NCBI GenBank assembly: GCA_963695395.1
Contig: CAVOGK010000026.1
Span: 60,511 to 124,510, forward strand
Length of the DNA stretch: 64,000 nucleotides
Reading direction: 5' to 3'
Origin: an uncultured Thermoleophilia bacterium
GTDB taxonomy: Bacteria > Actinomycetota > Thermoleophilia > UBA2241
Shown in pieces: positions 7,730-64,000 of the stretch. Under the pieces are notes generated by a model that did no database searches, was not told where the DNA came from, and worked only from the letters and a program-made list of their open reading frames with translations. The first letter of the stretch is position 1; each line of letters opens with the position of its first letter. A program made the translations under genes and the position numbers.

Positions 7730-9136
<1,407 letters not shown>

Positions 9137-12780: not shown

Positions 12781-12785
12781 GAGCC

Positions 12786-19218: not shown

Positions 19219-20649
19219 TCACGTGAGGACGACGCCGCAGACCTCCGCCAGAGCAGCCACTTGGGCATCGGACAACGCCGGTCTCCAGTCGGCGCGAGCC
19301 TGCAACATGGCTGTCACGCGCTCGCGGGCGGCGTCGACCTCGTCGCGGTCCTCCGCCTTCCAGGCGTCGTACGAAAGACGTGTCGAGACGACCGGCGCGA
19401 ACTGCTCGCCGGCGCGGATGCGCCGCGTGGTCTCCTTCTCGGCCAGGAAATGCCCGCCCGGACCGACCCTCTCGATCATCTCGCCGAGGATCTCCTCGTG
19501 CGAGATGGTCACGTCGGCCAGCAGCCGGCGGATGATGCCCACGATCTCGCAGTCGATGACGATCTGCGGCAGGTACAGCAGGTCGACAGAGTCGAGCATG
19601 CCGACGCCACCGCTGAGCACGTCGGCCCCGGCGGCGGCTGAGGTCAACCCCTTCAGGGCCTTGTCGTACCCAGCCTGGATGCCGGGGTACTTGGCCTCCG
19701 TGCCCAGGCCGGGCACCGCGACAGGCACGCCCAGGAAGTGCCCCATCTCGATGCTGGCGGCGGCCATGAGGTGAGATTCGGGCGCTCCGTACGCCACGTG
19801 TGCGGAGCGCATGTCCATGACGTTGGAGGAGGCGCCGAACACCAGGCGCGCGCCGGGGGCCATTGACTGCATCGCCGTGGCCACGCCGAGGAACTCGGCT
19901 ACCGCCTGCGTGACGCCGGCGGCGACGGTGATCGGCGTCGTCGCCCCGGACATCGGGATCGTGTAGACCTCGATCGGCACACCGTGCACGGCCATGGCGG
20001 CATGGAAGTCCAGCGCACCGCCGTCCACCTGCAGCGGGGAGGCCGCGGTGAGCAGCGTGCTGAACCGCGGTCGCTCCCTGAACGCTTCCTCGCCATCGGC
20101 GACGATGTCCCCGATGCGCAGCAGCGGTTCGACCTGCGACGGGCAATCGACGAAGGTGACGTGCTTGTCCGTGTTCGTGAGCATGGTGAAGTAGCCGGTG
20201 AGCTCGCGGACATCGAGAGGCACGTCGTTGGCGGTCACCGTCGTCCAGACCAGGTCGACCTCCGGCGAGGCGTCGAGCAGCGCCGTGGCCTTACGCAGGT
20301 CGTCGAGCGTCGAGAGCCGGCGTTCGCCGCTCTCGTCGTCCAGCACGAAGGCGCCGCAACCGGAGGAGCAGAAGTGCGAGCCCTCCCCTTCGGCGAGCAG
20401 AACGTCCTGCGCCGGCGTGGCGCCCGCCATGACGATCTCGCGCGGGCAGTGGTCGACGGCCTCCCGGACGAGGTCCGGTGGGAAGCGGACGATGCCGCTC
20501 TCGTGGTCGACCGCCGCGCCTTGCGCGGCGAGCGCGGCGAGTGCCCGGGAGCCGGCGAGACGCATGCCGACGCGCTCGAGCAGGGCCAGGGCCTCCCGGA
20601 CGATGAGGTCCTTCTCTTCCTGGCTCAGCCAGGTGGTCCGCTGTCGCAC
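19219..20649 (-). CDS. MttB-superfamily (trimethylamine methyltransferase family, COG5598) corrinoid-dependent methyltransferase, non-pyrrolysine paralog
   Basis: 476 aa. Family-typical segments PESHLMAAASIEMGHFLGVP, AGYDKALKGLTSAAAGADVLSGGVGMLDS. No internal stop. Confidence 0.8.
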   Translation of the reverse strand: MRQRTTWLSQEEKDLIVREALALLERVGMRLAGSRALAALAAQGAAVDHESGIVRFPPDLVREAVDHCPREIVMAGATPAQDVLLAEGEGSHFCSSGCGAFVLDDESGERRLSTLDDLRKATALLDASPEVDLVWTTVTANDVPLDVRELTGYFTMLTNTDKHVTFVDCPSQVEPLLRIGDIVADGEEAFRERPRFSTLLTAASPLQVDGGALDFHAAMAVHGVPIEVYTIPMSGATTPITVAAGVTQAVAEFLGVATAMQSMAPGARLVFGASSNVMDMRSAHVAYGAPESHLMAAASIEMGHFLGVPVAVPGLGTEAKYPGIQAGYDKALKGLTSAAAGADVLSGGVGMLDSVDLLYLPQIVIDCEIVGIIRRLLADVTISHEEILGEMIERVGPGGHFLAEKETTRRIRAGEQFAPVVSTRLSYDAWKAEDRDEVDAARERVTAMLQARADWRPALSDAQVAALAEVCGVVLT

Positions 20650-20829
20650 GGCGCTCCTCCGTTCGTGGCCGGATCAAGTCCCGCCGGCCATCAGTACCCA
20701 TGGCCCGTCCGACACGGCCATGCCCATACCGCGGACGGGAGGCAGCGCGCCGGACCAAGCGCCGCAGCGCCGGCGACGAGGACCAAGCGGCCACCGACCA
20801 ACCGCCCGGCCCGGCCGGACCGGCCCTGC

Positions 20830-33485: not shown

Positions 33486-35414
33486 TCAGGTCGGCGAACG
33501 CCCCCCTGTCTCCGCCGCCAGACGTCGGGCGACGGCTACCGCGTCGCCGGCGCTCGAGCCGTGGCCGTCCGCGCCGATGTCACGGGCGAAGCGCGCGGTG
33601 ACGGGAGCCCCGCCGACCATGACGCGTACGCCGTCGCGCTCACCCGACGCGACCAGCGCGTCGATCACGAGCCCCATCTGCGGCATGGTCGTGGTCAGCA
33701 GGGCGCTGAGGCCGAGAAGCGACGCGCGATGCTCTCGAAGCGCGCGCACGAACTCCTCGACCGGCACGTCCGTCCCGAGGTCGACCACGTCGAACCCCAC
33801 GCCACGCAGCATGATGGCCACGAGGTTCTTGCCGATGTCGTGAAGGTCGCCCCTCACAGTCCCAAGGACGACGGTGTCCGCCGCCCGCGAGACGCGTCCC
33901 TCGTTCATGAGCGCCTCGCCGAGCGCGTCGACCCCCGCCTGCATCGCGCGCGCCGCCAGCAGCATCTCCGGTATGAACGCCTCGCCCGCGGCGAAGCGCG
34001 CGCCGACGACGTCCATCGCGTGGATGAGGCCGTCGTCGAGGATCGCCTGCGCCGGCTGGCCGGCCGAGAGCAGCCGCCGACACCCGTCGTCGACGCTTGC
34101 CTCATCCCCGGCGAGGACGGCGGCGGCCAGCGAGGTGAACCCCTCGGCGACGGGAGCCGCCGGCTGCATCGGCGCGCGCCCACCCTCGACGAGGATGTCG
34201 GGCACCGCGCCCATCGCCAGCGGCAGTCTGCCGTCTGTCTGGAAGAACTCGTGCACGCGGCGCAGGCGGTCGAAGTCGGCCGTCGGCGGGACGGCATCGG
34301 TGATGCCGGCGATGAAGCGACGGCCCGGAGCTACGGCAGCTTTCACGTAGCGCAGGTAGTCGTCCAGGTCGGCGTCCGACGTCTGCTCGGGAATGAGATA
34401 GTCGGCCGGGATGCCGCCGATGATGCACAGATCGCCGGCCCAGCGCTCGTAGTACTCACGGAGGGTCAGGGCGGTCATCGGATACGGACAGACGGATTCC
34501 GCGGCATCGACGCCCGACGTCCTGATGAGCTCCATGAGGCCCCGGTTCTCGCCGTCGCAGTGCGTCAGGAGAGGGATGCCGCGAGGCCGCAGCACATCCG
34601 CGGCACGACGCAGCCAGGGGAGGATCTGCTCCTCGAAGAACGGCGGATACGTGATCGTCTCGTCGAAGTTGCCGCCCCAGGTCACGCCGTCGACGTCGGC
34701 GGACTCGTAGAACTCGAGAAACTGCTCGTAGAGCGGAGCGATCGCGGCGGCGAACTCCTCCAGTTCCGCCCGCCGGTCGTTGTAGAGCAGGTAGAAGTCG
34801 GTGCCGGGGAAGAAATGCTTCTGGATGTGGTGCATCGGCGAGGCCGGCTCCCCGGCCGCCGAGATCACGGCGCCGTCCTCGCCGATGCTCTGCCTGACCC
34901 GGCGATAGGTGTCCGGGTCCGGCACGAGACGCAGCGACCGGAACAGGTCGGCGACGACCCGCCAATCGTCGAACTCCTTGATGAAGGGCTGCGTGACCCA
35001 GGGGTAGGTGATCCCATTGCGGAGCATCTCGGGCGTGTGACTCAGGACGGCGCCCGCGTCGCCGGAGTCCGTCTCCGCCCGCACGTGGAGGCGATCGCCG
35101 TCGCGGCGCCACGAGAAGCCTACGTCGTCACCGAGGGTCAGCCGATAGCCACACTCCGGGGGCGTGTAGAGACCGAGAGCACTGAGGGCCATGCCCTCGT
35201 CCGACGACGCGAGGTAGGCGAAGGTGCTCGTCAGCAGGTAGACGCCCCACCCCTCGGCGCGACAGATCTCCTCGATCGAGGCATCCTCGAGTCCGGGCGG
35301 CAGGGTCCCCGCGGCCGCACGGCCGGTGTGCCAGAGGTCCAGCCGCGGTGCGTACGGGAGCCTGTCGGGCAGCTCACCTCGGAGGGCCGCCAGCGCCTGT
35401 GTCCTGAACCCCAT
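33486..35414 (-). CDS. Two-domain methyltransferase: N-terminal URO-D/MtaA-like domain fused to a C-terminal cobalamin-binding domain (CmuA-like architecture)
   Basis: URO-D-like N-terminal ~400 aa. C-terminal DLHDIGKNLVAIMLRGVGFDVVDLG...GLSAL B12-binding DxHxxG/SxL/GG signature. GGAAGGGAGGG SD before the ATG at 35414. Confidence 0.75.
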   Translation of the reverse strand: MGFRTQALAALRGELPDRLPYAPRLDLWHTGRAAAGTLPPGLEDASIEEICRAEGWGVYLLTSTFAYLASSDEGMALSALGLYTPPECGYRLTLGDDVGFSWRRDGDRLHVRAETDSGDAGAVLSHTPEMLRNGITYPWVTQPFIKEFDDWRVVADLFRSLRLVPDPDTYRRVRQSIGEDGAVISAAGEPASPMHHIQKHFFPGTDFYLLYNDRRAELEEFAAAIAPLYEQFLEFYESADVDGVTWGGNFDETITYPPFFEEQILPWLRRAADVLRPRGIPLLTHCDGENRGLMELIRTSGVDAAESVCPYPMTALTLREYYERWAGDLCIIGGIPADYLIPEQTSDADLDDYLRYVKAAVAPGRRFIAGITDAVPPTADFDRLRRVHEFFQTDGRLPLAMGAVPDILVEGGRAPMQPAAPVAEGFTSLAAAVLAGDEASVDDGCRRLLSAGQPAQAILDDGLIHAMDVVGARFAAGEAFIPEMLLAARAMQAGVDALGEALMNEGRVSRAADTVVLGTVRGDLHDIGKNLVAIMLRGVGFDVVDLGTDVPVEEFVRALREHRASLLGLSALLTTTMPQMGLVIDALVASGERDGVRVMVGGAPVTARFARDIGADGHGSSAGDAVAVARRLAAETGGRSPT

Positions 35415-35530
35415 GGACGACCCTCCCTTCCAGTTCGTCGCGCCAGCCAGCACACCTGATCGATCGCGGTCGCGATGCTACGGGGCCGCAGCAGCCCGGC
35501 GATGCCCCCAGTGTCGCGCCGCGGCGACCC

Positions 35531-38521: not shown

Positions 38522-39964
38522 TCATTGCTGCACGCCGCAGACCTCCGCGAGGGCGGCGAGCTGGTCAGATCCGAGCGCCGAGGCGCGGCCGTCGGCGGCG
38601 TCCGCCGCCCCAGTGGCGAGCACCTGATCCACGATCTCCCTGGCCACGTCCGTCTCGAGCACCCCCGCAGCCATCCACTGTTCGAAGGCCAGGCGACTGC
38701 CGATGACGGGGCTGAAGTGCTCGCCCGCCCGGGTACGCTCGCGCGTCACGCGCTCCTTGAGGTAGTTGCCGCCCGCGCCCAGGCGCGCGATGGCGTCGCT
38801 CATGACGCTCTCCACGCTGATATCGGCGCCCGCGACGATGTGCCGCACGAGCCGCGCGATGTCCGCGTCGATCGGCACCATCGGGAGGTGCCACACGCTC
38901 GACGAGGCCAGCGCCCCGAATCCCCCGCTGATGACATCCACCCCGGCGAGCGCCGCCGGCAGCACCTTGAGGCCCTTCTCGTACCCGGCCTGCACGCCGG
39001 GGTGCTTGGCGTCCGTCGAGAGGGCCGTGTTGTGGACGGGCAGACCGAGATGGTGTCCGATCTCGACCGAGGCGATGCCCATGATGGTGTTCTCCGGGCT
39101 GCCGAGGGACATCGACGAGGTGCGCATGTCGAGGACGCCGGGCCCGCAGCAGGCGAGCACCGCGGCCCCGGGGGCCGTGGCCTGGACGGCGGTGACCATG
39201 CCGAGGATCTCCGCCCACATCAACGCGAGCGTCCCCCCCACCGTGACCGGTGACGTGGCGCCGGCCATCGGCATGGTGTACGCCCAGACCGGCGCCCCCA
39301 TCGCTGCGTGCGCACAGGTCGCGTCGAGGAGCTCGCCGTTGACCTGCAGGGGAGCGCGGACGGCGCACAGGATAGCGATCCGCGGACGCCGCCTGAAGCC
39401 GTCCATGCCGTCCCCGAGGACGTCCATGATGCGCCGTACCGGCGCGACCTCGGTCGGGCAGTCGACGATCACGAATGGCTTCGAGGTCAGCGAGAGGTAT
39501 GCGTAGTACTCGGTCAGCTCGCGGCGTTCATCGGGCACGTCGTTCGCGGTCGCGAACGTCCACAGGAAGTCGATCTCGGGTGTCGCATCCATGACCGCGG
39601 TGCCCTCACGGATGTCCTGCAGCGTCGACTGCCGCACCTTGCCCGTGCGGAAATCCAACGTCTTGGCGTGGCAACCGGACGGATTGAAGAACGGTCCGGT
39701 GTGGCGGTCAAGGACCACGTCGCGTTCCGGCGTGGCTCCGGCCAACACGAGCCGGTCGGGCAACTGGGCGAGAGAGGCGCGCACGAGGTCCGGCGGCATG
39801 CGCACCATGCCGGACTCCCGGTCCACCGTCGCGCCGCGCTCCTCGAGAGCGTCGAGCGCGCGCGATCCCTTCATGCGCATGCCCTCCCGCTCGAGCACGC
39901 TGAGAGCGGACTCGACGACGAGGTCGCGCTCGGACGGGTCCAGGCACGTGAGACGAAGGTTCAT
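38522..39964 (-). CDS. MttB-superfamily corrinoid-dependent methyltransferase, non-pyrrolysine paralog 2
   Basis: Homologous to the 19219-20649 gene (LSLGSPENTIMGIASVEIGHHLGLPV, AGYEKGLKVLPAALAGVDVISGG). ATG at 39964 with AAAGGGG SD. Confidence 0.8.
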   Translation of the reverse strand: MNLRLTCLDPSERDLVVESALSVLEREGMRMKGSRALDALEERGATVDRESGMVRMPPDLVRASLAQLPDRLVLAGATPERDVVLDRHTGPFFNPSGCHAKTLDFRTGKVRQSTLQDIREGTAVMDATPEIDFLWTFATANDVPDERRELTEYYAYLSLTSKPFVIVDCPTEVAPVRRIMDVLGDGMDGFRRRPRIAILCAVRAPLQVNGELLDATCAHAAMGAPVWAYTMPMAGATSPVTVGGTLALMWAEILGMVTAVQATAPGAAVLACCGPGVLDMRTSSMSLGSPENTIMGIASVEIGHHLGLPVHNTALSTDAKHPGVQAGYEKGLKVLPAALAGVDVISGGFGALASSSVWHLPMVPIDADIARLVRHIVAGADISVESVMSDAIARLGAGGNYLKERVTRERTRAGEHFSPVIGSRLAFEQWMAAGVLETDVAREIVDQVLATGAADAADGRASALGSDQLAALAEVCGVQQ

Positions 39965-40084
39965 GCAACCCCTTTTCAGGACGCGCCGGCGGCGAGGGCC
40001 GTCGGCAGCGGTGTCCGTAGGTGACCTGCTCGTAGTCAAGCGCGAATGGTACACCCCTGACCGGCCTCGCGGATGCTGCGCGCT

Positions 40085-41485
40085 CTACTCCTCCGCGGGC
40101 GGCGTCAAGCTTTTGCGGACGTCCTTCGAGCGAACAAGGAGGTGCTGCGGGCCCGTGGGCGAGGGCGCAAAGCCGTACTTCTCAAAGAAGCCGCGCGCGG
40201 CGCCGTCACCAGCATCGACGAGGACTGCCCGGGAGAACATCGTGGAGGACGCCTGCAGGCAGCGAGACAACGCCTGCACGAGCATCGCCTCGCCGATGCC
40301 CCTGCCCTGCTCCGGGGTGTCGACCGCCATGCGCTCGAGCACGATCACCGGGATGTCCAGAGGACCCTGGCCGAGCTCGTGCTCGATCGTCGCGGGTGGG
40401 CTGACCGTCGCCGCCTTGAGTGCGAAGTAGCCGACCACTCGCGCATCCCGGGCGGCCACGCGGGTCGTGCCGGCCCGCTGGTCGATGAGCGCGCGCTGCG
40501 CGAGGTACTCGTCCAGGGCAGCGTCGCCACAGGTGAAGCCGGCGACATCGTCGGTCGCCCCGAGGGCCTCGAGCCGGAGCGACGCCCCGTCGCCCTCGAA
40601 TGGGCTCGCCGCCGCAGCCGCCTCGGCGAGCGCCGTGATCGGCTCCGACTTGCCCGACAACTGCTCGCCGAAGGCCGTCCAGGCCTCGTCGTCGAGCACG
40701 AACCGGGGCTGGTCGGGCAGCGGCTGGTCGGGCGGGCTGACGAAGCCTCCGCCGCCGTCCTGGCCGATGGGGCACGCCAGTTCGCAGGCACGGCAGTACT
40801 TGGTGACGTTGCTGGGCTCGTCGAGTGCCATGATCGCCCCGTCGAGCACCTCGAAGTCCACGTCGAGTTGATCCTGCTCCTGCTTGCAGAGTGTCCGCGC
40901 GTACGAGCCGCTACGGAACGCGGTCCGCGGGCAGACACGCTGACAGGGCTTGCTGCACGTCGCGCAGGGATCGAAGCCCACGAGCTGCGGGGTCGGTCCC
41001 AGTTCCGCTTCCATGAAGATGCCGCGAAGCCGTATGCGCGGGCCGTACTCGGGCGTGATCAGCAGGTTGTCCCGGCCGAACACACCCAGGCCGGCGAGGA
41101 CTGCGGCATCCTTGAGGAAGGCCCCGCCGTACTCGATCTGGTACGGCAGCGACAGGGCGCCCATGTCGAGTTCTTCATTCATCCACACGCGGAGCCGCCG
41201 GGACTGGGCGGCCAACTCGCGGTTGCCGGGGGTGAAGCCTTTGACCTTCAGGCTCCACCAGTCGAGAACGGGCTCCGACGCCGGGTGCGCCAGCCCCCAC
41301 ACCAGCATCGTCTTGAACTCGTCCTTCCATTCCACGCCCTTGTACTCGGGGTAGAAGGGGTTCTCGTCGTAGGTCGCGTATGACGGAGCGTCCTTGAGGT
41401 CCGCGATGCGTACGATGCCGACCAGCGAAGCACCCTCTTCCCTGGCCTTGTCCATGATTCTCTGCGTGAGCCCGTCGCTGCCCAT
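40085..41485 (-). CDS. Fusion protein: QueG-like (DUF1730 + double 4Fe-4S cluster) N-terminal region with a C-terminal GNAT acetyltransferase domain
   Basis: Cys clusters CATCSKPCQRVCP and CRACELACP. C-terminal GNAT pattern. ATG 41485 with AAAGGA SD. Confidence 0.5.
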   Translation of the reverse strand: MGSDGLTQRIMDKAREEGASLVGIVRIADLKDAPSYATYDENPFYPEYKGVEWKDEFKTMLVWGLAHPASEPVLDWWSLKVKGFTPGNRELAAQSRRLRVWMNEELDMGALSLPYQIEYGGAFLKDAAVLAGLGVFGRDNLLITPEYGPRIRLRGIFMEAELGPTPQLVGFDPCATCSKPCQRVCPRTAFRSGSYARTLCKQEQDQLDVDFEVLDGAIMALDEPSNVTKYCRACELACPIGQDGGGGFVSPPDQPLPDQPRFVLDDEAWTAFGEQLSGKSEPITALAEAAAAASPFEGDGASLRLEALGATDDVAGFTCGDAALDEYLAQRALIDQRAGTTRVAARDARVVGYFALKAATVSPPATIEHELGQGPLDIPVIVLERMAVDTPEQGRGIGEAMLVQALSRCLQASSTMFSRAVLVDAGDGAARGFFEKYGFAPSPTGPQHLLVRSKDVRKSLTPPAEE

Positions 41486-41547
41486 GTGTCTGGATCCTTT
41501 CCGCCGTGAGGTCGGGCCCGCGGCCCCTCCTCGCACGTCCGTGACTT

Positions 41548-43620
41548 CTAACGGTCCCCGCTCAGTCTGATGAGCGCGTCGGCCGCGACCGCGCCCTGGC
41601 CCTCGGCCAGGACCAGGAGCGGGTTCACGTCGAGCTCCACGATGGCCGCGGGATCCTTCTGGACAAGGGCGGCGACCGCAAGGACGACGTCGGCGGCCGC
41701 GTTCAGGTCGGCCTGCGGACACCCCCGGAAGCAGTTCAGGAGCGGCGCGCACATGAGTCCGCCCAGCGCGTCCAGGACGTGCTCCCGGGTCACCGGGAGC
41801 AGGAGGGACGCGCTGTCCTTCATGAGCTCGACGAGGATGCCGCCGCCGCCGACCACCAGGTACGGGCCGAACTGCTCGTCCTGGGCGACGCCGACGATGA
41901 TCTCCGCGACGGCGTCCTCGACCATGCGCTCGACGAGGAAGGACTCCGAGAGCCCCGCCATCATCGCCATCGCAGACGACACGTCGTCGGCGCTCCGCAG
42001 GTCGAGGCGCACGCCACCCACGTCGGTCTTGTGGGCGACGCCCAGCGCCTTGACGACGACCGGGAAGCCGAGCGCCTCGGCGGCCGCGACCGCCTCCCCG
42101 GCGCTGCCGACGACCCGCGCCTCGGGAACGGGGACGCCGGCGTCGGCGAGCATGCGCTTCGAGGCCGCCTCGTCAAGCACGGTGACGGCGTCGCGATCGA
42201 CCCGGAACGGAGCCACCAGCAGGGGCTGACTCGGCGGCTGCTCCCAGGCCGCGCCGATGTCCACGGCCGCCTGGACCGCCGCCACCGCATCGTCGATGCC
42301 GGCGAGCAGCGCGACGCCGTCTTCCATGAGGCGCTCGGCCACGGGCTCGGCGACCGTGTCGGCGAAGGTCGCGAGCACCGCGCCCTTGGTGCCGGTGGCC
42401 TTGGTCGCACGCACGAAGCCCCGCTCCGCCCCGCCCCAGGTGGACTGGTCGCACCTGTCCGCCCTCGGGTAGTCGAGCGCGCACAACGCGATGTCGAAGT
42501 CCTCCGCCATGAAGGCGCCGAAGATCTCGGCGTTCGCGTCGTCGTCGTCCCACGTGTACATCTGATAGTCGAACGGGTTGGAGGCGACGACCCGTTCGTG
42601 GACGACCGCGCGCACCCCCTCCGCGACCTTCTCGGACAGCGGCGGCAGGGTCAGCCCCGGCGTCAAGGCGTCGGCCAGCAGCGTGAGGTCGCCGCCCGAC
42701 GTGCTCATCGCGCCGACGCGGCCGCCCTGGAGGGGGCCCACCACGTGAAGCAGCTTCAGCGCCTCGACCAGAGCCTCGAGCGAGTCGACCCGTGCCAGCC
42801 CGAGCCGCTCGAACAGCGCACTCACGAGCACGTCGGAACCGGCCAGCGAAGCGGTGTGGGACACGACCACCTTCTGCGCGACCTGCGAGCGGCCGGTCTT
42901 CACCGCGACGATGGGCTTGCCCAGCTCGCGGGCCACGTCGACCGCCTCCTGAAAGCCCTTCGGATCCGGCAGCGTCTCGAGATAGAGCCCGATCGCCGTG
43001 ACCTCGTCCCGGCGCGCGAAGATCCTGATGGCGTCGTTGAGGTCGAACTTGAGCCGGTTGCCCAGCGAGACCATGTAGGCGATGGGCAGGCCGCGCCGCT
43101 GCATGGTGATGTTGAAGCCGACGTTGGACGACATCGTGATGATCGCCACGCCGCGGTCCACCCGGCGGCCGCCCTGCTGATCCGGCCAGAGCATCGCCCC
43201 CGTGACGTAGTTGAGCAGCCCGTAGCAGTTGGGGCCGACCAGCGCCATGTCTCCCGAAGCCTCGAGCAGCTGCCGCGTGAGCTCGGAGCCCTCTTCGCCC
43301 GCCTCGGCGAAGCCGGTGGCGTACGAGATGGCGCCACCGGCGTCCCGCGCGGCGAGGTCCCTGATGATGTCGATGGTGAGATTGCGGTTCACGCCGACGT
43401 AGGAGGCGTCGGGGCTTGCCGGCAGCTCGTCGACCGAGCGGTAGACCTTGCGCCCCTGCACCTGCTCGGCCTTGGGGTGGACAGGCCAGATCTCGCCCTT
43501 GTAGCCCATGAGGTCGCACTGACGGATCGCCTCCTGAGCCTGCGCGCCGCCGAAGACGGCGATCGACTGCGGGTTCAGAAGGCGCTCGAATCGCGTCGGG
43601 TCAGTGGTCACCGCATCCAT
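41548..43620 (-). CDS. ADP/NDP-forming acyl-CoA synthetase (acetate--CoA ligase family), fused alpha/beta domains
   Basis: CoA-binding and succinyl-CoA-synthetase-like domains followed by an ATP-grasp domain. ATG 43620 with GGAGGT SD. Confidence 0.75.
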   Translation of the reverse strand: MDAVTTDPTRFERLLNPQSIAVFGGAQAQEAIRQCDLMGYKGEIWPVHPKAEQVQGRKVYRSVDELPASPDASYVGVNRNLTIDIIRDLAARDAGGAISYATGFAEAGEEGSELTRQLLEASGDMALVGPNCYGLLNYVTGAMLWPDQQGGRRVDRGVAIITMSSNVGFNITMQRRGLPIAYMVSLGNRLKFDLNDAIRIFARRDEVTAIGLYLETLPDPKGFQEAVDVARELGKPIVAVKTGRSQVAQKVVVSHTASLAGSDVLVSALFERLGLARVDSLEALVEALKLLHVVGPLQGGRVGAMSTSGGDLTLLADALTPGLTLPPLSEKVAEGVRAVVHERVVASNPFDYQMYTWDDDDANAEIFGAFMAEDFDIALCALDYPRADRCDQSTWGGAERGFVRATKATGTKGAVLATFADTVAEPVAERLMEDGVALLAGIDDAVAAVQAAVDIGAAWEQPPSQPLLVAPFRVDRDAVTVLDEAASKRMLADAGVPVPEARVVGSAGEAVAAAEALGFPVVVKALGVAHKTDVGGVRLDLRSADDVSSAMAMMAGLSESFLVERMVEDAVAEIIVGVAQDEQFGPYLVVGGGGILVELMKDSASLLLPVTREHVLDALGGLMCAPLLNCFRGCPQADLNAAADVVLAVAALVQKDPAAIVELDVNPLLVLAEGQGAVAADALIRLSGDR

Positions 43621-43784
43621 CTCAACCTCCGTTGTCACGGGTTCTCGCAGGTCCGATCGTCGAGCCGGCGATGGTCGGGCACGCAGGCGCGCCGCGGAGC
43701 GTGGCGCGTGGCCGGGCAGACGCGTGGTCACTGCGGTGGTTCACGCGGGCGTCGAAGCGCTCCGGGGCAACGCACGCGGCCTGG

Positions 43785-56467: not shown

Positions 56468-56971
56468 CTAGTGATGAGCTGGTACTGCGATCTGTGCGGG
56501 GGCCGGCTCCGTCTCCTCCGGCACCGGCCATCCCGTGTCTGGCTTCACCTCCGAGTAGACGAGCATGGTCTCCACCTTGTCGACGCCGGGGATGGCGGCG
56601 ATGTCGTCCTTGATCAGGCAGCCGAGGTGCTCGAGATCGCGCACCGCGACGCGCAGCAGGTAGTCGAAGCGCCCGGCGACGTGGTAGCAGGCGCAGACGT
56701 CGGGCAGGGCGACGACGCCGCGCTCGAAGCCCTCGATGCAGGCGGTCTCGTGATGCACGAGCTCGGCGGCGAGGAAGGCCTGCAGGCCGAGGCCGAGGCT
56801 GGTAGGGCTGACGAGGGCGCGGTAGCCGGTGATGTGGCCGTCGAACTCGAGGCGTCGCACGCGCTCGCTCATCGCCGACTGGCTGAGCCCGACGAGCTCG
56901 GCGAGGTGGGCGTTGGTGAGGCTGCCGTCCTTCTGAAGCTCGATCAGGATGCGGCGGTCGAGAGCGTCCAT
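56468..56971 (-). CDS. Lrp/AsnC-family transcriptional regulator, 9 nt upstream of panB
   Basis: MDALDRRILIELQKDGSLTNAHLAELVGLSQSAMSERVRRLE. Near-duplicate of the 37929-38399 gene. Confidence 0.85.
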   Translation of the reverse strand: MDALDRRILIELQKDGSLTNAHLAELVGLSQSAMSERVRRLEFDGHITGYRALVSPTSLGLGLQAFLAAELVHHETACIEGFERGVVALPDVCACYHVAGRFDYLLRVAVRDLEHLGCLIKDDIAAIPGVDKVETMLVYSEVKPDTGWPVPEETEPAPAQIAVPAHH

Positions 56972-57215
56972 GTCATCTCCACTGGAACGACCGGTCAGCC
57001 CAGATGGTAATCGAAAGATTTCCTGTCAGTCAATGTTATTGCCGCCGAAACTCCTGACATACGCCGCAATATCGACAGAGTCGCCGTACTCGAGCGTCCT
57101 CAGCGGGAGACTTTGCGAGGCAGTACGGCACCGGCCGGGTCCGCGGCGAGCTCCGGCGACGGAGCGGCGGCGGTCCCCCGGAATCTGGTAGGTTTGCTGG
57201 CGAGGAGGGTGGACC

Positions 57216-57902
57216 ATGTACGACTGGCGCAGAGACTGGCTGACCCGTTTCGGACGCACCGAGCCGAAGATCGTCTGTGTGGGTCTCAACTACACCGACC
57301 ATGCCGCGGAGCAGGGCGTGAAGCTGCCGCCGAACCCCATGCTGTTCGCCAAGTTCGCGAACGCCCTCTGCGGGGACGGCGAGGACATCGTCCTCCCCCG
57401 CGAGATCGGACACGTCGACGCCGAGGCCGAGCTGGCCGTCGTCATCGGCCGCGAGGCGCACGGCGTCGCCGCCGACGACGTCCTCGAGATCGTGCACGGC
57501 TATCTGTGCGGCAACGACGTGAGCGCGCGCGACCTGCAATTCGGCGACGGGCAGTGGTTTCGCGGCAAGAGCCAGGACACCTTCTGCCCCATCGGTCCGG
57601 GGATCGTGCCCGCGAGCGAGCTGGGCGACGCCGGCGACCTGCGCGTGGTGCAGCGCCTCAACGGCGAGACGCTGCAGGACTCGCGCACCAGCCGGCTCCT
57701 CTTCGGCGTTCGCGAGCTGGTCTCGTTCGCCTCGCACGCGCTGACGCTGCTGCCCGGCGATCTGATCCTCACGGGCACGCCCGCGGGCGTGGGCGTCTTT
57801 CGCGACCCCAAGGTCTCCCTGCGGCACGGCGACGTCGTCGAGGTCGAGGTGGAGGGCATCGGCGTGCTCCGCAACCCGGTGATCGAGTCCCCGGAAGCCT
57901 AG
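57216..57902 (+). CDS. Fumarylacetoacetate hydrolase family protein
   Basis: FAH-fold motifs (IVCVGLNY, EAELAVVIG, GTPAGVG). Confidence 0.8.
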   Translation: MYDWRRDWLTRFGRTEPKIVCVGLNYTDHAAEQGVKLPPNPMLFAKFANALCGDGEDIVLPREIGHVDAEAELAVVIGREAHGVAADDVLEIVHGYLCGNDVSARDLQFGDGQWFRGKSQDTFCPIGPGIVPASELGDAGDLRVVQRLNGETLQDSRTSRLLFGVRELVSFASHALTLLPGDLILTGTPAGVGVFRDPKVSLRHGDVVEVEVEGIGVLRNPVIESPEA

Positions 57903-58098
57903 AACGAGCCCTCCGGGTCGCGCCCGAGCGCGTCCCTGAAGCCACCGTCAGGCGCCTGCGCGGACCGCGGCGCCCGGCGTGCGGCGTACGGCGAGTGACT
58001 ACGCAGGCGCCTCCCCCACTCCAGAGACGCGTCCTTCGCGGACGCTGCCGGCCGAGCGCCTCCTCGTCGGATTGTGGTCCTGAGATGGCGCGCCGTGG

Positions 58099-59175
58099 TC
58101 AGAGCGGGTACGCGCCGTGCTCACGACCTGCCCTCACCATGGCCAGGTAGTTCTCCGGCCTCACGCCTGCGTGGATCGAGTTCGACGAGGAGAGGATGTA
58201 GCCGCCGCCCGGAGCCGCCGCGTCGATCGTCTGCTCGACGGTCCGTACGACCTCGCCTTCGTCCCCGCTGACGAGTACCTCGACACAGTCGATGTTCCCG
58301 ACCAGACAGATGCGGTCGCCGAGTCGCTCCTTGACCTCAACGATGTCCATGCACTGCGGCTGGATCGGGTTGTAGCCGTCGAAACCGACGTCGATGAGAT
58401 CCTGCATGAGCGGCCACATGTTGCCGTCGCTGTGCTTGACGATCGGCAGGCCGCAGTCGTGCGCGGCCGCGACGATCTCGGCATAGTAGGGCTTCACGTA
58501 CTCGCGAAAGTGGGCCGGCGAGAAGATCGGCGCCTTGTTGGCGGCGAGGTCACCCTCCATGAGGAGCACGTCGGCGCCCGCCTGTGCGGCGCCGCGCACG
58601 GTGGCGATCGTGGCGTCGGTGGTGACCCGGGCGAGGGCATGGACCAGCTGCGGATCCCGGAGGAAGTCCCAGAGCAGCGCCTCCATGCCGCCCCGGAGCT
58701 TCCAGGACAGCTTGAAGGTATCGGCGAAGTAGAACCACACGGGGTAGTCCGGGCCGAGCAGCTCGCGCGCCTTGCGCACGCAGTCGAAATCCGCAGACGT
58801 GAGTCTGCCCGCCATGTCGAAGCCGACCAGATCCTCGACTGAGCCGACAGGGCCCTCTTCCACCGTCGGTTCCCCATGCCTGCTGAGACGATAGACAGAG
58901 CCGTAGCGGTCCCGCACGCGCTCTTCATCGACGGGCGTGACGCCGAGCGGCATGCAGATCCAGATGCTGTCGATGCCCAGGGCCTTCGTCAGGGACGCCG
59001 ACAGCTGCTCGAACGCGAACGGCTCCTCAGCCGCCGGCACGTCGAGGTCGAGCAGCCGGGCCAGGTCGACCATCGGCGCCCAGTCGATACAGTCGACGAT
59101 AGGCACGCGATCCGGCGCCTCGCCGCGGAGGGCGGCGAGCACGCGCTGCCTGGGCGTCATGGCCGGGGTGGCCAT
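58099..59175 (-). CDS. URO-D/MtaA-like methylcobamide methyltransferase family protein
   Basis: 358 aa, URO-D fold pattern. The C-terminal tail ...SIHAGVRPENYLAMVRAGREHGAYPL is the same tail found in the 35531-35761 remnant. Confidence 0.75.
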   Translation of the reverse strand: MATPAMTPRQRVLAALRGEAPDRVPIVDCIDWAPMVDLARLLDLDVPAAEEPFAFEQLSASLTKALGIDSIWICMPLGVTPVDEERVRDRYGSVYRLSRHGEPTVEEGPVGSVEDLVGFDMAGRLTSADFDCVRKARELLGPDYPVWFYFADTFKLSWKLRGGMEALLWDFLRDPQLVHALARVTTDATIATVRGAAQAGADVLLMEGDLAANKAPIFSPAHFREYVKPYYAEIVAAAHDCGLPIVKHSDGNMWPLMQDLIDVGFDGYNPIQPQCMDIVEVKERLGDRICLVGNIDCVEVLVSGDEGEVVRTVEQTIDAAAPGGGYILSSSNSIHAGVRPENYLAMVRAGREHGAYPL

Positions 59176-59511
59176 TCCGACGGCCGATCCGGTCCGCTAC
59201 GACGCCGAAACCGGCGTCGTGTCGGTCTTCCGGAAGCTCATGACGACCTCCTCGTCGACAGGCGGCGGAGCCATCCGCCGGCGGTCGCGCGGCAGCGAGC
59301 CGTCCGCGCACTGCATAACCACCCAGGTGGGTGCTACCCTACCATCGGTGCCCGTAGCGTCAACGGCGTCGACGCCTCGGCACGCGGAGAGACCGTTCGC
59401 CGGCGCCCTGCGCACGTCTCTCCGCGCGAATCCAGGAAGGGAGATGCCGATCCGGCCGGGTGGTACCATGCCACCCAGCGGTGCCTCGCCGCCGTCGACA
59501 TCGGGGGACGC

Positions 59512-61191
59512 GTGCGACTGACCACCCGCGATCTGCTGCGTCGCCCACTCGGCAGCTCGCAGCGAGCGCTCTACAAGAGCATGGGCCACAGCGATGACGA
59601 CCTCAGTCGCCCGCTCGTCGGCCTGGCCAACGCGTACAGCACGCTCGTCCCCGGCCACGCCAACCTCCGCGATGTGGCCGAGGCCGTGCGCCGCGGCGTG
59701 ACGAGGGCCGGCGGCACGGCGGTCGAGTTCGGCGTACCGGGTATCTGCGACGGTCTGGCCGACCATCACTCCGGCGCCCACTACACCCTCCCCTCGCGCG
59801 AGATCGTCGCCGCGTCCGTGGAGATGATGGTTCGCGGCCACGCGCTCGACGGGGTCGTGCTGCTCGGATCCTGCGACAAGATCGTGCCGGGCATGCTGAT
59901 GGCGGCCGCGCGCGTCGACGCGCCGGCGATCATGATCGTCGGCGGCCCTGCGGAGGGTGGCATCGAGTTCCAGGGACACGCCGCCGACAGCTCGTCACCC
60001 GACGACGCCGTCACGCTGCTGCAGAGCGGTGAGATGGACCAGGAGGCGTTCCTCGCGCTCGAGAACGGCTGCCAGCCCGACTGCGGTTCGTGTGCCTACC
60101 TCGGCACGGCGAACTCGATGTGCTGCGCGGCCGAGGCGATGGGCATGAGCCTGCCGGGCAGCGCCACGATCCCGGCCACCGACGCCGCCCGGCTGCACGC
60201 GGGGCAGGCGACCGGCGAGCGGATCGTGCACCTCATCTCGGAGGGCGCCGGAGCGCGCTCGATCATGAGCCTCGCCGCCATCACCAACGCGATCCGGACG
60301 ATGGCCGCCATCGGTGGCTCCACCAATACGGTGCTGCATCTCATGGCCATCGCCCGTGAAGCCGGAATCGCCATCACGATCGACGACTTCGCCGACCTGT
60401 GGACCACGACGCCGCAGATCGCCCGCGTGAACCCGTCCGGCCCCGCCACCGTGCCCGACTTCCACCGCGCCGGCGGGGTGCCCGCCGTGATGCGAGAGAT
60501 CCAACCCCTGCTCGAGGGTTCCGCGCCCACGGTCACCGGCCGCACTCTCGCGGAAGACCTGCTGGCAGCCACGCCGCCGGCGCGCGGCGACGAGATCATC
60601 CGCCCGCTCGGTGACCCCTGGAATGCGGGAGGCGGACTTGCCGTGCTGCGGGGCAACCTCGCGCCGCGCAGCGGCATCACACGCCCGGCGGCCTTCTCGC
60701 GCAGCCTGCACGTGTTCACCGGTCGCGCCCTCTGTTTCGACAGCGAACAGGCCGCCAACGAGGCCATTCTCGGCGGTCACATCGAGCCGGCGACCGTCGT
60801 CGTCATCCGGTACGTGGGCCCGCGCGGCGGCCCCGGCATGCCGGAGATGTACGCGCCGATGAAGTACCTGGCGGCGCGTGGCCTGGCCACGTCCGCCGCG
60901 ATCGTCACGGACGGCCGCTTCTCGGGCACCAACAACGGCTGCTTCGTCGGCCACGTCTGCCCCGAAGCCGCGCTCGGCGGTCCCATCGCCCTGGTCCACG
61001 ACGGCGACGAGATCACGATCGACGTACCCGGAGGGGCGCTCCACCTGCACGTGGACGACCTGGAACTGGAGCGGCGCCGTACCGCGTGGCGGCCGCGAAC
61101 AGCGAAGCCCGCCGGCGGCCTGCTGGCACTCTACGCGCGGCTCGCCGGCCCCGCCGATCGCGGCGCGCTCATGGAGGTGGACGAAACGTGA
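59512..61191 (+). CDS. IlvD/EDD-family dehydratase (second copy; substrate unknown)
   Basis: [45 protein letters not shown]. The ORF is open from 58876, but the conserved N-terminus begins at a GTG near 59512. Confidence 0.75.
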   Translation: MRLTTRDLLRRPLGSSQRALYKSMGHSDDDLSRPLVGLANAYSTLVPGHANLRDVAEAVRRGVTRAGGTAVEFGVPGICDGLADHHSGAHYTLPSREIVAASVEMMVRGHALDGVVLLGSCDKIVPGMLMAAARVDAPAIMIVGGPAEGGIEFQGHAADSSSPDDAVTLLQSGEMDQEAFLALENGCQPDCGSCAYLGTANSMCCAAEAMGMSLPGSATIPATDAARLHAGQATGERIVHLISEGAGARSIMSLAAITNAIRTMAAIGGSTNTVLHLMAIAREAGIAITIDDFADLWTTTPQIARVNPSGPATVPDFHRAGGVPAVMREIQPLLEGSAPTVTGRTLAEDLLAATPPARGDEIIRPLGDPWNAGGGLAVLRGNLAPRSGITRPAAFSRSLHVFTGRALCFDSEQAANEAILGGHIEPATVVVIRYVGPRGGPGMPEMYAPMKYLAARGLATSAAIVTDGRFSGTNNGCFVGHVCPEAALGGPIALVHDGDEITIDVPGGALHLHVDDLELERRRTAWRPRTAKPAGGLLALYARLAGPADRGALMEVDET

Positions 61192-62468
61192 CCACACCAC
61201 CGACTCCCGTGCGACTGCCGGATCTGGTCCGCGTGCGGCAGCGGTTCCCCGCTCGGGCGGGGATCGACGTCGTCGCGCGCCTCGGCGAGCAACTCGACGC
61301 GATGGACCTGGCCGGTCGCATCACTCCGGGCGCCCGAGTGGCTCTCACGGCAGGAAGCCGAGGCGTGCGCGACATCGTGCCGGTGCTTCGCCTGCTCACC
61401 ACCCGGGTCCGCGCCGCCGGCGGCTCGCCGTTCCTCGTCCCCTGCATGGGGAGTCACGGCGGAGCCACGGCAGAGGGTCAAGCCGAGGTGCTGCGCTCGC
61501 TCGGCGTCACGGAGGAGGGCGTGGGCGCGCCTGTCGTGTCGTCGATGGACGTGACGCGCGCCGCGGAGAGCCGCTTCGGGGCGCCGGTCTGGGTGTCGCA
61601 AGATCTGGCACAGGCGGACGCCGTCATCGTCGTCAACCGGGTCAAACCGCACCCCGACTTCGTCGGTCCCATCGAGAGCGGACTCGTGAAGATGCTCGTC
61701 ATCGGCGCCGGCAAGCACGCCGGGGCCGCCGAGGCTCACCGACTGGCCCTCCGCCACGGCTTCCCCGTCGTCCTCGAGGAGCACGCGCGCGGCGCGCTCG
61801 CCCGTCTCCCGGTCATCTGCGGGGTGGCGCTCATCGAGGACCAGACCGAGCAGACGGCCGAGATCCACGTGCTCGAGGCGCGCGACATCATCGCGCGCGA
61901 GCCCGCGCTGCTCGAGCGCGCCAAAGGCCTGATGCCGTCGCTCCCCTTCGAGGCGCTCGACTGCCTGATCGTCGACGAGCTCGGCAAGGAGGTCAGCGGC
62001 AACGGCATGGACTCCAAGATCATTGGTCGCATGGGCCCGTCCGACAGCCCATCCGCCATGACGCCGCGCATCATCCGCATCGTCGTGCGCGACCTCACGG
62101 AGTCCTCGCACGGCAACGCCATCGGCATCGGCTCCGCCGATTTCACGACGAAGCGTCTGCTGGCGGCGATCGACGCGGAGGCGACCACGATCAACTGCGT
62201 GACCTCGATGGCCCCCGAAGCCGCCCGCCTGCCCATCGCCTTTGACCGGGACGTGGACGCGGTGCGCGCCGCCTATGCGACCTGCGGCGCGGCGGCGCCT
62301 GACGAGTTCACCCTCGCCTGGATCCGCAACACGTTGTGCCTTGAGGAACTCCTCATCTCGACGGCGCTGCTGGACACGGCCCGCTCCAATGAGCGTCTGG
62401 AGATCCTGGGCGAACCGTTCACGTTTCCTGCCCTCCGCGACGGTACCCTGGCGCCGGCGTGGGACTGA
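61188..62468 (+). CDS. LarA-like (DUF2088) nickel-pincer-dependent racemase/epimerase family protein
   Basis: GTGA overlap with the upstream dehydratase. DUF2088-like N-terminal domain, similar to the 14138-15415 gene. Confidence 0.6.
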   Translation: MTTPPTPVRLPDLVRVRQRFPARAGIDVVARLGEQLDAMDLAGRITPGARVALTAGSRGVRDIVPVLRLLTTRVRAAGGSPFLVPCMGSHGGATAEGQAEVLRSLGVTEEGVGAPVVSSMDVTRAAESRFGAPVWVSQDLAQADAVIVVNRVKPHPDFVGPIESGLVKMLVIGAGKHAGAAEAHRLALRHGFPVVLEEHARGALARLPVICGVALIEDQTEQTAEIHVLEARDIIAREPALLERAKGLMPSLPFEALDCLIVDELGKEVSGNGMDSKIIGRMGPSDSPSAMTPRIIRIVVRDLTESSHGNAIGIGSADFTTKRLLAAIDAEATTINCVTSMAPEAARLPIAFDRDVDAVRAAYATCGAAAPDEFTLAWIRNTLCLEELLISTALLDTARSNERLEILGEPFTFPALRDGTLAPAWD

Positions 62469-62500
62469 GCGTCTCTGGCGACCAGGACTGGAGGTCACTG

Positions 62501-63311
62501 ATGGACGATGGGCGGCAGGTCTCGAGAGGACGCCTGCAAGGGACTGTGGCGATCGTCACCGGCGGGGCTTCGGGCATCGGCGCCGCCATCGCGCGGCGCT
62601 TCGCCGCAGAGGGCGCCCGTCAGGTCATCGTGGGACTCGCGGACGAGACGGAGAAGGCGGCGTCCCTGATCGGCGAGCTCGGCCACGACCGCGCCGTCTT
62701 CGTGGCCGGAGACGTCAGCACCCCGGAGACCGCCTCTCGTGCAGTAGACATCGCCCTTGAACGCCACGGAAGACTCGACGTCCTGGTCAACAACGCCGGC
62801 CTCGACTACTCGGGTGTGGACGTGCTCGAGTCGGACCTCGGGTTCTCCCGGCGCGTCATGGAGGTCAATTTCTTCGGGTGCTTCCTCATGCTGCGGGCGG
62901 CAGCGCGAGGCGATGATGGGAGCGGCGGACACGGAGACCGGCCCCACGGCGGGCGCCGTCGTGAACGTCGCGTCGCGCGCCGGCGTGGTGGGCGTACCGT
63001 CGATGGCCATGTACGGCGCCAGCAAGGCCGCGCTCATCAGCCTGACTCGTACGGCCGCTCTCGAACTGGCGCCGAGGATCAGGGTGAACGCCGTGGCGCC
63101 CGGCGCTACGGAGACGCCGATGATGCGCACCTGGATCGACGAGCAGGATGACCCTGCCGCCTTCGCGAGCGCCCTCGCCGCCACCGTACCTCTCGGCCGC
63201 CTGGCGCAGCCGCGGGAGATCGCCGACGCGGTCCTCTTCCTGGCCTCGGACGAAGCCTCGCACGTCACCGGCGTCGTCCTGTCGGTGGACGGCGGCTACA
63301 CGACGGGATAA
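62501..63311 (+). CDS. Short-chain dehydrogenase/reductase, one frameshift near 62890
   Basis: VTGGASGIG, NNAG. The C-terminal part (YGASKAAL...) lies in the frame of ORF 62757-63311. Confidence 0.75.
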
Positions 63312-63342
63312 GGCCGCCGGGGGTTGTCTGGGCGTCGATACC

Positions 63343-64000
63343 TCAGCGCACTCCGAGCTCGGCCTCGGCGCCGCGGATGATCTCCCCCAGCTCCGCGGCG
63401 ACGCCATCCGGCAGCGGGGTCGGGACGTGCGTCTCGAGGATCGTGCGCGCCCTGGCGAGGGCACGCTCCTGCATGGTGCTCGAGCCCGACTGCTTCCAGT
63501 CCTCGCGCACGCGCCGGTCGATGAGCGCCGGCTGCGAGGTCTCCCGCATGTGCGCCATCGTGTGGTCGTGGCTCAGGAAGTCGCCGAAGGGCCCGATCTC
63601 GCCGATGACGTCGATGGCGAGCGCTTCGTCGTCCACGCGGATGCCGCGGACGCACTGCTTGATCATCCCAGCGTACTCGTCGTCCATCACGAGCTGCCCG
63701 AAATCGAAGGTCATGCCCGACTCGATCATCCCCAGACCGTAGATGAGGTTGGCGCCTGCCAACGCCGGCATAAGGCCGGTCAGGGTCTTCTCGTGGCCAC
63801 TTTGGGCATCGACCACTTTGGAGTCGCCCTACGCACCCGCCACCCAGCTGGGCAGCAGGTAGAAGCGGGCGATCTGCGCGACGGCCGCGCCGATGAGCGC
63901 GCACTCGGGCGAGCCGACGCTCGCCGAAGCGAGGCGGAGGTCCATGGCCGTCGTCGAGCTGCCGTAGACGACCGCGGCCCCCGGCCGCACGAGCTGGTTC
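63343..64000 (-). CDS. mttB: MttB-family methyltransferase, C-terminal ~220 codons (gene continues beyond the window), with an in-frame TAG at 63829-63831
   Basis: ...[15 protein letters not shown]...[52 protein letters not shown]... is continuous MttB homology on both sides of a single in-frame amber codon, with no frameshift needed. Confidence 0.6.

Follow-up and report, generated by a model that had tools for sequence, protein, structure and literature searches.

Does a TAG codon that lies in frame within an mttB homologue mark the end of a broken gene, or does it encode pyrrolysine (Pyl)? The question is raised by the end of a 64-kb stretch of DNA from an uncultured Thermoleophilia bacterium (contig CAVOGK010000026.1 of assembly GCA_963695395.1), which in its whole length is referred to here as the window, and where the minus strand carries the 3' part of a gene of the trimethylamine methyltransferase family MttB. 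Among the enzymes that use pyrrolysine, Pyl-MttB is the founding example. Recognition of Pyl-type mttB is important in annotation, since a gene caller breaks such a gene into two. The gene is also relevant to the cycling of methylamines in soils and wetlands, in competition with methylotrophic methanogens. On the evidence presented below, we are confident that the gene cut off by the end of the window is an authentic mttB of the Pyl type and belongs to a Thermoleophilia bacterium; its UAG is very probably decoded as pyrrolysine. In addition, we describe an RNA hairpin downstream of this codon that is, for mttB, previously undescribed.

The in-frame TAG and the pyrrolysine column of MttB

On the minus strand, 63343-63999 reads as one MttB-family frame, in which the sole internal stop is the TAG at 63831..63829 and which ends in ELGVR and the TGA at 63345..63343. 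Translation of this strand and a match of the fragment to Pfam PF06253 (MTTB; E 1.5e-51) confirmed the original prediction, made from the sequence alone, that MttB homology continues without interruption through a single TAG. Its count of about 162 codons after the TAG holds only if the terminal stop is included; 161 sense codons separate the TAG from the TGA, with no other stop or frameshift among them. The mttB region has a G+C content of ~69-71%, the same as the remainder of the window.

Among solved structures, the top match of the fragment is the trimethylamine methyltransferase of Methanosarcina barkeri (7XCL/7XCM; E 7e-54), next to which the non-Pyl glycine-betaine enzyme 2QNE/9YCE matches at E 3e-43. 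The alignment with 7XCL is free of gaps over query residues 2-211, with identities of 47% across 210 residues and 66% across the 102 that surround Pyl, and sets query residue 57, the TAG, opposite chain residue 334, which is printed as X. Whereas the TAG had been predicted to lie close to the Pyl position of authentic MttB, it aligns exactly, without gaps, with Pyl334 of the M. barkeri protein (7XCL/7XCM/7XCN), a member of the same family, PF06253, with the UAG in the identical column. M. barkeri MttB, which we take to be 495 residues long (the PDB chain has 503), would presumably have 161 residues after Pyl334. The second comparator that had been put forward as a Pyl-MttB, Desulfitobacterium hafniense DSY3156 (PDB 2QNE), was a mistaken choice: we take it to be the non-Pyl glycine-betaine enzyme MtgB (2QNE/9YCE), which belongs to the same fold family and has, in 2QNE, Leu opposite the TAG.

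The assignment to the trimethylamine enzyme can be assessed with NCBIfam TIGR02369, the equivalog model of [trimethylamine--corrinoid protein] Co-methyltransferase, whose cutoff of 525 bits applies to the whole protein. Covering 212 of the 469 profile positions (45%), the fragment obtains 339.1 bits and is too short to reach that cutoff. Full-length orthologues have 488 codons, of which the TAG is the 327th, and their 5' part is intact in L001, L002, L004, L005 and L008. The first of these, a Thermoleophilia metagenome-assembled genome (MAG) that is the nearest relative of the window, encodes a full-length protein that is 94% identical over the shared part and scores 733.7 bits. This orthologue exceeds the cutoff, and the other MttB paralogues of the window fall far below it. 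The earlier proposal of a true Pyl-MttB alongside non-Pyl paralogues stands.

Orthologues were scanned with one genome per species, which gave 79 loci of 63-94% identity in MAGs of Thermoleophilia and Desulfobacterales, that is, in two phyla. TAG was found at the aligned codon in all 79 primary orthologous matches, or in 89 TAG-mttB copies when paralogous ones are included, and the frame was open beyond the TAG in every orthologue scanned. In the neighbouring divergent paralogues of these relatives, the TAG column holds His, Ala, Ser, Thr or Gly; a sense codon at this position is confined to divergent paralogues, which are about 60% identical at most. Over 160 codons after the TAG, the ratio of nonsynonymous to synonymous substitution rates (dN/dS) is 0.19-0.42 against nine of ten relatives (L002 to L038).

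Two close paralogues of Pyl-mttB, both 58-62% identical to the Pyl type, have exchanged the TAG for a sense codon. In the Thermoleophilia MAG L063 (~15669-17129) it has become CTC (Leu), beside two copies that retain TAG, and in the Desulfobacteraceae MAG L031 (2866-3456) it has become TAT (Tyr). Some genomes hold three TAG-mttB copies within 10 kb (L057 at 10166, 14568 and 19601; L037 at 2505, 4197 and 5933).

Probable pyrrolysine decoding and its alternatives

The genes required to decode UAG as pyrrolysine are found in relatives. Contig_9089 (486,313 bp) of MAG MFD09964.bin.1.366 carries a TAG-mttB that is 90% identical to that of the window (L005) and, ~160 kb from it, a full pyl set (L080, 10001-17441). 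The latter consists of pylSc (10001-10858), a corrinoid protein gene, pylSn (12775-13104), tRNA-Pyl(CUA) (14197-14269), pylD, pylC and pylB, and all five Pyl proteins score above their NCBIfam cutoffs. The Thermoleophilia neighbourhood (loci L080-L083) runs from gltX, pmbA/tldD, a helix-turn-helix regulator and amidase_3 to pylSc, pylSn, pylT and pylDCB. As pylSc stands in the same gltX, pmbA/tldD and amidase neighbourhood in two further genomes, a stable and vertically inherited residence of the pyl genes in this clade is likely; the tRNA-Pyl of L080 and L083 is 100% identical, the PylSc only 67%. From these relatives we infer, strongly, that the source organism encodes a Pyl-decoding system.

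The route to these genes depended on the query. A search with a Desulfobacterales PylSc recovered close deltaproteobacterial relatives only, and Thermoleophilia were reached via a 50%-representative library, in which the PylSc search led to the high-G+C sequence P0128. Its 2878 relatives at E ≤ 1e-20 include some that NCBI assigns to Actinobacteria and others already entered there as 'pyrrolysine--tRNA(Pyl) ligase large subunit [Thermoleophilia bacterium]'. One PylSc relative, P0354, sits on contig_9089, which its name and length identify as the contig of L005. The two groups differ in arrangement: in Desulfobacterales loci, tRNA-Pyl and pylSc-pylB-pylC-pylD-pylSn are less than 10 kb from mttB, whereas none of the Thermoleophilia mttB loci is so arranged, the cassette occupying a separate conserved neighbourhood ~160 kb away.

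Several observations weigh against a decoded UAG. Only the last 218 codons of mttB are visible, the 5' ~270 codons lying beyond position 64000. ARAGORN and Rfam found no tRNA, and no pylT, in the 64-kb window, and tblastn with Desulfobacterales and Thermoleophilia Pyl queries found no homologue of pylS, pylB, pylC or pylD in it, the sole match being to a corrinoid domain. No cognate mttC adjoins mttB within the window. In L083 (12472-14428), pylC is apparently truncated and followed by a reverse-transcriptase gene (RVT_1), with neither pylD nor pylB in the next 7 kb; this cassette may be disrupted, in which case loss of the Pyl system would occur in the group. In the comparison with L001, the nearest relative, the codons after the TAG give a dN/dS of 0.87. 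Finally, the local sequence is not of perfect quality, as at least two other genes of the window are frameshifted, namely a short-chain dehydrogenase at 62459-63311 (+), spread over two frames (adh_short 2-129 and 120-236), and a Pat-like acetyl-CoA-synthetase/GNAT gene at 40088-43740 (-), also in two frames; such split genes are consistent with assembly indel errors or with pseudogenes.

These frameshifts are what could be said for the view that the TAG arose by an error of sequencing or assembly, or through a nonsense mutation of recent date, and that the gene is an ordinary MttB paralogue or pseudogene. However, the errors elsewhere in the window are indels, not substitutions, while the TAG falls exactly on the Pyl334 column and the frame beyond it is intact and under purifying selection. 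Given that the same codon is TAG in all 79 orthologues, which stem from independent assemblies and different technologies, sequencing error and pseudogene are excluded, and the miscalled codon against which the original prediction had cautioned has next to no probability. It is similarly hard to credit that a near-cognate tRNA or some other suppressor inserts one of the standard amino acids at the UAG. Nothing specific speaks in favour of this, and it must contend with the position of the codon at the catalytic Pyl residue of the family, with the dedicated tRNA-Pyl, PylRS and PylBCD of relatives and with the restriction of sense codons in this column to the divergent paralogues described above.

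A Pyl-type gene could also have outlived its decoding system, so that the UAG would terminate translation and yield a 326-residue fragment from a decaying relic. We consider this improbable, even though the lack of pyl genes in the window, the L083 cassette, where an apparently truncated pylC adjoins a reverse-transcriptase gene and neither pylD nor pylB was found nearby, and the dN/dS of 0.87 against the closest relative would all fit it. Because the cassette of a relative lies ~160 kb from mttB, the absence of pyl genes from 64 kb is to be expected and is not counter-evidence to decoding. Relaxed selection in the window lineage, which the ratio of 0.87 might suggest, was rejected since the changes are few and conservative and do not favour either lineage: after the TAG, the window and L001 differ by 12 conservative replacements and 7 synonymous changes, and the replacements divide 5/6 between the two lineages. 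Moreover, the 161 codons after the TAG are free of stops and frameshifts, and the hairpin described below is intact with its constrained synonymous sites.

If, as we believe, the gene is decoded, the UAG at 63829-63831 would be read, as predicted from relatives, by an amber-suppressor tRNA-Pyl(CUA) that a split bacterial PylRS (PylSc and PylSn) charges with pyrrolysine, and this suppression would compete with release factor at the mttB UAG. The pyrrolysine would itself be made from two lysines by PylB, PylC and PylD, whose genes would lie elsewhere in the chromosome. By analogy with the family, the 488-residue protein would hold Pyl in its active site, where the imine would bind trimethylamine and present a methyl group to a cognate MttC-type protein, whose corrinoid is in the Co(I) state. 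The methyl would be passed on by an MtaA/MtbA-like methyltransferase, in a bacterium probably to tetrahydrofolate, and the dimethylamine product would be left for Pyl-MtbB. For the window enzyme, the incorporation of Pyl, the specificity for trimethylamine and the downstream methyl acceptor are thus predictions from sequence.

Acetohalobium arabaticum and Bilophila wadsworthia are examples of bacteria with Pyl systems. Such systems have been known since those of D. hafniense and the Olavius delta-1 symbiont (PMC1976440), and the Desulfobacterales and this symbiont likewise have a PylRS split into PylSn and PylSc, pylT-pylS-pylBCD in one cassette, and families of both mttB and mtbB that contain TAG; the Desulfobacterales MttB orthologues are 63-70% identical to the window MttB. 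Unlike M. barkeri, the host of the window is a bacterium (Thermoleophilia) of ~69% G+C, and its methyl acceptor is presumably not coenzyme M. Ellenbogen et al. 2023 reported expression of Pyl-mttB and mtbB by Actinobacteriota MAGs at Stordalen Mire (PMC10805028), which concerns the same phylum and the same two families, recognised by the same criterion, truncation at an amber codon; that study reports neither a pyl cassette nor an mRNA element (PMC10805028). No paper in the literature searched linked pyrrolysine with Thermoleophilia by name. Since the Actinobacteriota genes were published in 2023 and NCBI already names a Thermoleophilia PylS, the window gene adds to the known Actinobacteriota Pyl-mttB and is not a first. 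Its host would be one more soil actinobacterium that reads UAG as the 22nd amino acid and is able to demethylate trimethylamine.

An RNA hairpin downstream of the UAG

Starting 66 nt after the UAG, the mRNA of bacterial-type TAG-mttB genes, that of the window included, contains a perfect hairpin, GUUGGC-AGGN-GCCAAC, within codons 349-354 (Ala-Leu-Ala-Gly-Ala-Asn), and there is in our view little doubt that it is a selected RNA structure. When the 100 nt after the TAG were aligned for 76 genes, these codons were nearly always GCG TTG GCA GGN GCC AAC, of which TTG and GCA are rare codon choices in a 69% G+C genome, and the sole free synonymous site was the fourth loop base. Across a set of 90 TAG-mttB genes, the entropies of codons 349-354 are 0.09, 0.31, 0.00, 1.71, 0.00 and 0.15 bits; the five stem codons thus have 0.00-0.31 bits, as against ~0.5-2.2 bits for almost every one of the 182 remaining codons that are conserved and degenerate. 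The same ALAGAN peptide is written with other codons, and without a hairpin, in the non-TAG paralogues L063 (Pyl to Leu), L045, L055, L036, L040 and L022, and the single non-TAG paralogue that keeps the hairpin is the TAT copy, one step from TAG. The non-Pyl MttB superfamily, to which the window paralogues belong, differs from the TAG gene in having both a sense codon at the Pyl column and no hairpin, and the sampled sequences of the archaeal, M. barkeri type (SDAK[IV]PD...TMTT) are mostly without it.

Covariation was examined in an independent sample, obtained by scanning contigs of metagenomes with a pattern in which all synonymous sites were left degenerate, which gave 122 further unique sequences. 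The six stem pairs are formed in 93.9% of cells, a figure that drops to 21-53% once the partner strand is shifted along. At the outer pair, 70 sequences have G-C, 32 have A-U, 5 have G-U and 16 are unpaired, and pair 72-81 shows single A-U and U-A replacements. None of 500 shuffles reached the covariation score of the hairpin, in a test that is not phylogeny-aware and on sequences that are related. For the two columns of the outer pair, the odds ratio is 448 (p 5e-21), compared with 0.8-6.0 at nine other synonymous sites. Drift in G+C content as the cause of the switch between G-C and A-U was rejected on account of this odds ratio and because both types occur in every bin of third-position G+C content (GC3). 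The hairpin is present in the minimum free energy fold; the folding energy of its region in the window is unremarkable (z -0.5 to -0.8), and the case for the hairpin rests on conservation at synonymous sites and on covariation.

This hairpin is distinct from the structure that Rfam models for the gene. The window matches RF02510, PYLIS_3 ('pyrrolysine insertion sequence mttB'), from the TAG onwards (Table 1), and the consensus structure of that model lacks the mttB hairpin at +69..+84. The alignment in the window reflects mostly coding-sequence similarity and contains several non-canonical pairs. In 123 sequences, the PYLIS_3 consensus pairs were unsupported: 70.9% of cells were paired, a value equalled by 173 of 500 shuffles, and there was no covariation. 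The PYLIS_3 match was therefore rejected as evidence of RNA structure.

A counterpart of the hairpin exists in mtbB, a family unrelated to mttB whose members in the relatives' loci have TAG in 99 of 99 cases. TAG-mtbB carries, at +75..+90, a 6-bp hairpin with the loop AGAY (L002 7208-7327 and 91 other mtbB loci), which is paired in 95.1% of cells and whose outer pair is CG in 28, UG in 16, AU in 15, UA in 11, GC in 9 and GU in 3 sequences. The codon before the TAG of mtbB is TTG in 92 of 98 genes, and the Gly at +26 is GGA in 97 of 97. The mtbB hairpin coincides with the 3' hairpin of the Rfam RF02509 (PYLIS_2) consensus. The mttB hairpin resembles this PYLIS_2 element in its six base pairs, its AG-purine-N loop and its similar distance from the UAG (+69 as against +75). 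In 2.03 Mb of sequence we counted 742 hairpins of this type, of which 243 follow an open-frame TAG at a distance of exactly 69 or 75 nt, and in the ~2 Mb scanned no third family had the same hairpin after an open-frame TAG.

How bacteria might tell a Pyl-UAG from a stop-UAG by means of an mRNA signal has been a question since 2005-2007. Earlier searches for a bacterial PYLIS found nothing in common (PMC1976440), the authors of the Rfam PYLIS models stated that mttB shows no common structure (PMC3639795), and according to a 2025 paper no mechanism for the targeted insertion of Pyl is known (PMC12626013). The hairpin described here raises the value of the locus as a lead on this question and provides a concrete object that can be mutated. 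It mirrors the element modelled for mtbB and, among mttB genes, is nearly confined to those with UAG, the TAT copy being the one exception. Being 66 nt from the UAG, it cannot contact a ribosome whose A site holds the UAG. It may be a signal for recoding or pausing, determine what becomes of the mRNA upon a stop at the UAG, or be a binding site for a protein or an RNA. That it is a cis-element tied to Pyl decoding, the counterpart of the PYLIS_2 3' hairpin, which favours Pyl insertion or steers the fate of the mRNA by read-through, is a tentative proposal that we would ourselves call doubtful. Were it true, the hairpin would help to tip the balance towards Pyl insertion in bacteria, for which UAG is a stop codon as well. 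In the window, UAG is ambiguous and not reassigned, because 4 of 33 confident open reading frames (ORFs) end on TAG as an ordinary stop, for example that of the AsnC regulator at 56468-56470.

Two other readings of the hairpin region were considered. A sigma-54-type promoter at TTGGCAGGNGCC was dropped, as by eye there is no TTGC at the right spacing, and a model in which the hairpin sets the spacing of a ribosome queue (trisome) is, by reasoning only, disfavoured by the 6-nt difference between mttB and mtbB, which argues against a strict spacing.

Paralogues and neighbouring genes in the window

Table 1. Coordinates and strands of the principal features in the 64-kb window
Feature	Position	Strand	Remarks
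3' part of Pyl-type mttB (trimethylamine:corrinoid methyltransferase)	63343..64000	-	~codons 271-488 of 488; TGA 63343-63345
In-frame TAG (UAG), predicted pyrrolysine codon	63829..63831	-	aligned to residue 334 (X) of 7XCL; TAG in 79/79 orthologues
mRNA hairpin GUUGGC-AGGC-GCCAAC, 6-bp stem	63748..63763	-	+69..+84 from T of TAG; loop 63754-63757
Rfam RF02510 PYLIS_3 match	63732..63831	-	64.5 bits, gathering threshold 38; model 1-100; begins at TAG
URO-D / MtaA-CmuA-like methyltransferase, candidate methylcobamide methyltransferase (MT2 step)	58099..59175	-	Pfam URO-D 3.1e-34
Non-Pyl MttB-superfamily paralogue	38522..40084	-	Ser at Pyl column (codon at 39019); TIGR02369 298 bits
URO-D-like (MtaA-type), B12-binding_2 and B12-binding corrinoid fusion, MtgC/MttC-like, one ORF	33486..35477	-	Pfam domains
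Non-Pyl MttB-superfamily paralogue	19219..20673	-	Gly at Pyl column (codon at 19704); TIGR02369 332 bits

Alignment bore out the claim that the two other MttB paralogues of the window have Gly and Ser at the TAG column. Both are 30-33% identical to the fragment and below the TIGR02369 cutoff over their full length, and both possess the non-Pyl feature, a sense codon at the Pyl column, that the TAG gene does not have.

Candidates for the partners of MttB are present in the window, although neither adjoins mttB. The MtaA-like gene at 58099-59175 matches the NCBIfam MtaA/CmuA models below their cutoffs only; it is syntenic with mttB in L001, L003 and L012, and its product may act as a methylcobamide methyltransferase. 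The corrinoid fusion at 33486-35477 is likewise below the cutoffs of the NCBIfam corrinoid models and was matched in tblastn by MttC-like proteins. A 90% identical copy of this fusion ORF stands beside the TAG-mttB cluster of L012.

Reading away from mttB, the genes are the frameshifted short-chain dehydrogenase on the other strand, ilvD, the URO-D/MtaA-like gene, a gene of the fumarylacetoacetate-hydrolase family, the AsnC regulator and panB. Between ilvD and the dehydrogenase, ~1.3 kb (61200-62460) has long ORFs in three frames and no Pfam match at 1e-5. The best matches of mttB are in MAGs labelled Thermoleophilia or Actinomycetes, and L001 is syntenic with the window over 7 kb (56830-63999) at 86-97% nucleotide identity. 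Directly upstream of mttB, L001 has a TetR-family regulator with a BetI-type C-terminal domain (7770-8918, +), preceded by a beta-eliminating lyase, so a TetR/BetI-type regulator is expected just beyond position 64000. In most other relatives, TAG-mttB is clustered with a corrinoid protein, a non-Pyl MttB paralogue and one or two TAG-interrupted mtbB genes; the window and L001 are without such an mttC/mtbB-type cluster next to mttB.

A second TAG of the window touches the MttB superfamily. The Pat-like gene stops at a TAG (40085-40087, -), and the non-Pyl paralogue at 38522-40084 follows directly in the same frame. This TAG is probably an ordinary stop; in a cell that suppresses UAG, read-through would enter the next gene.

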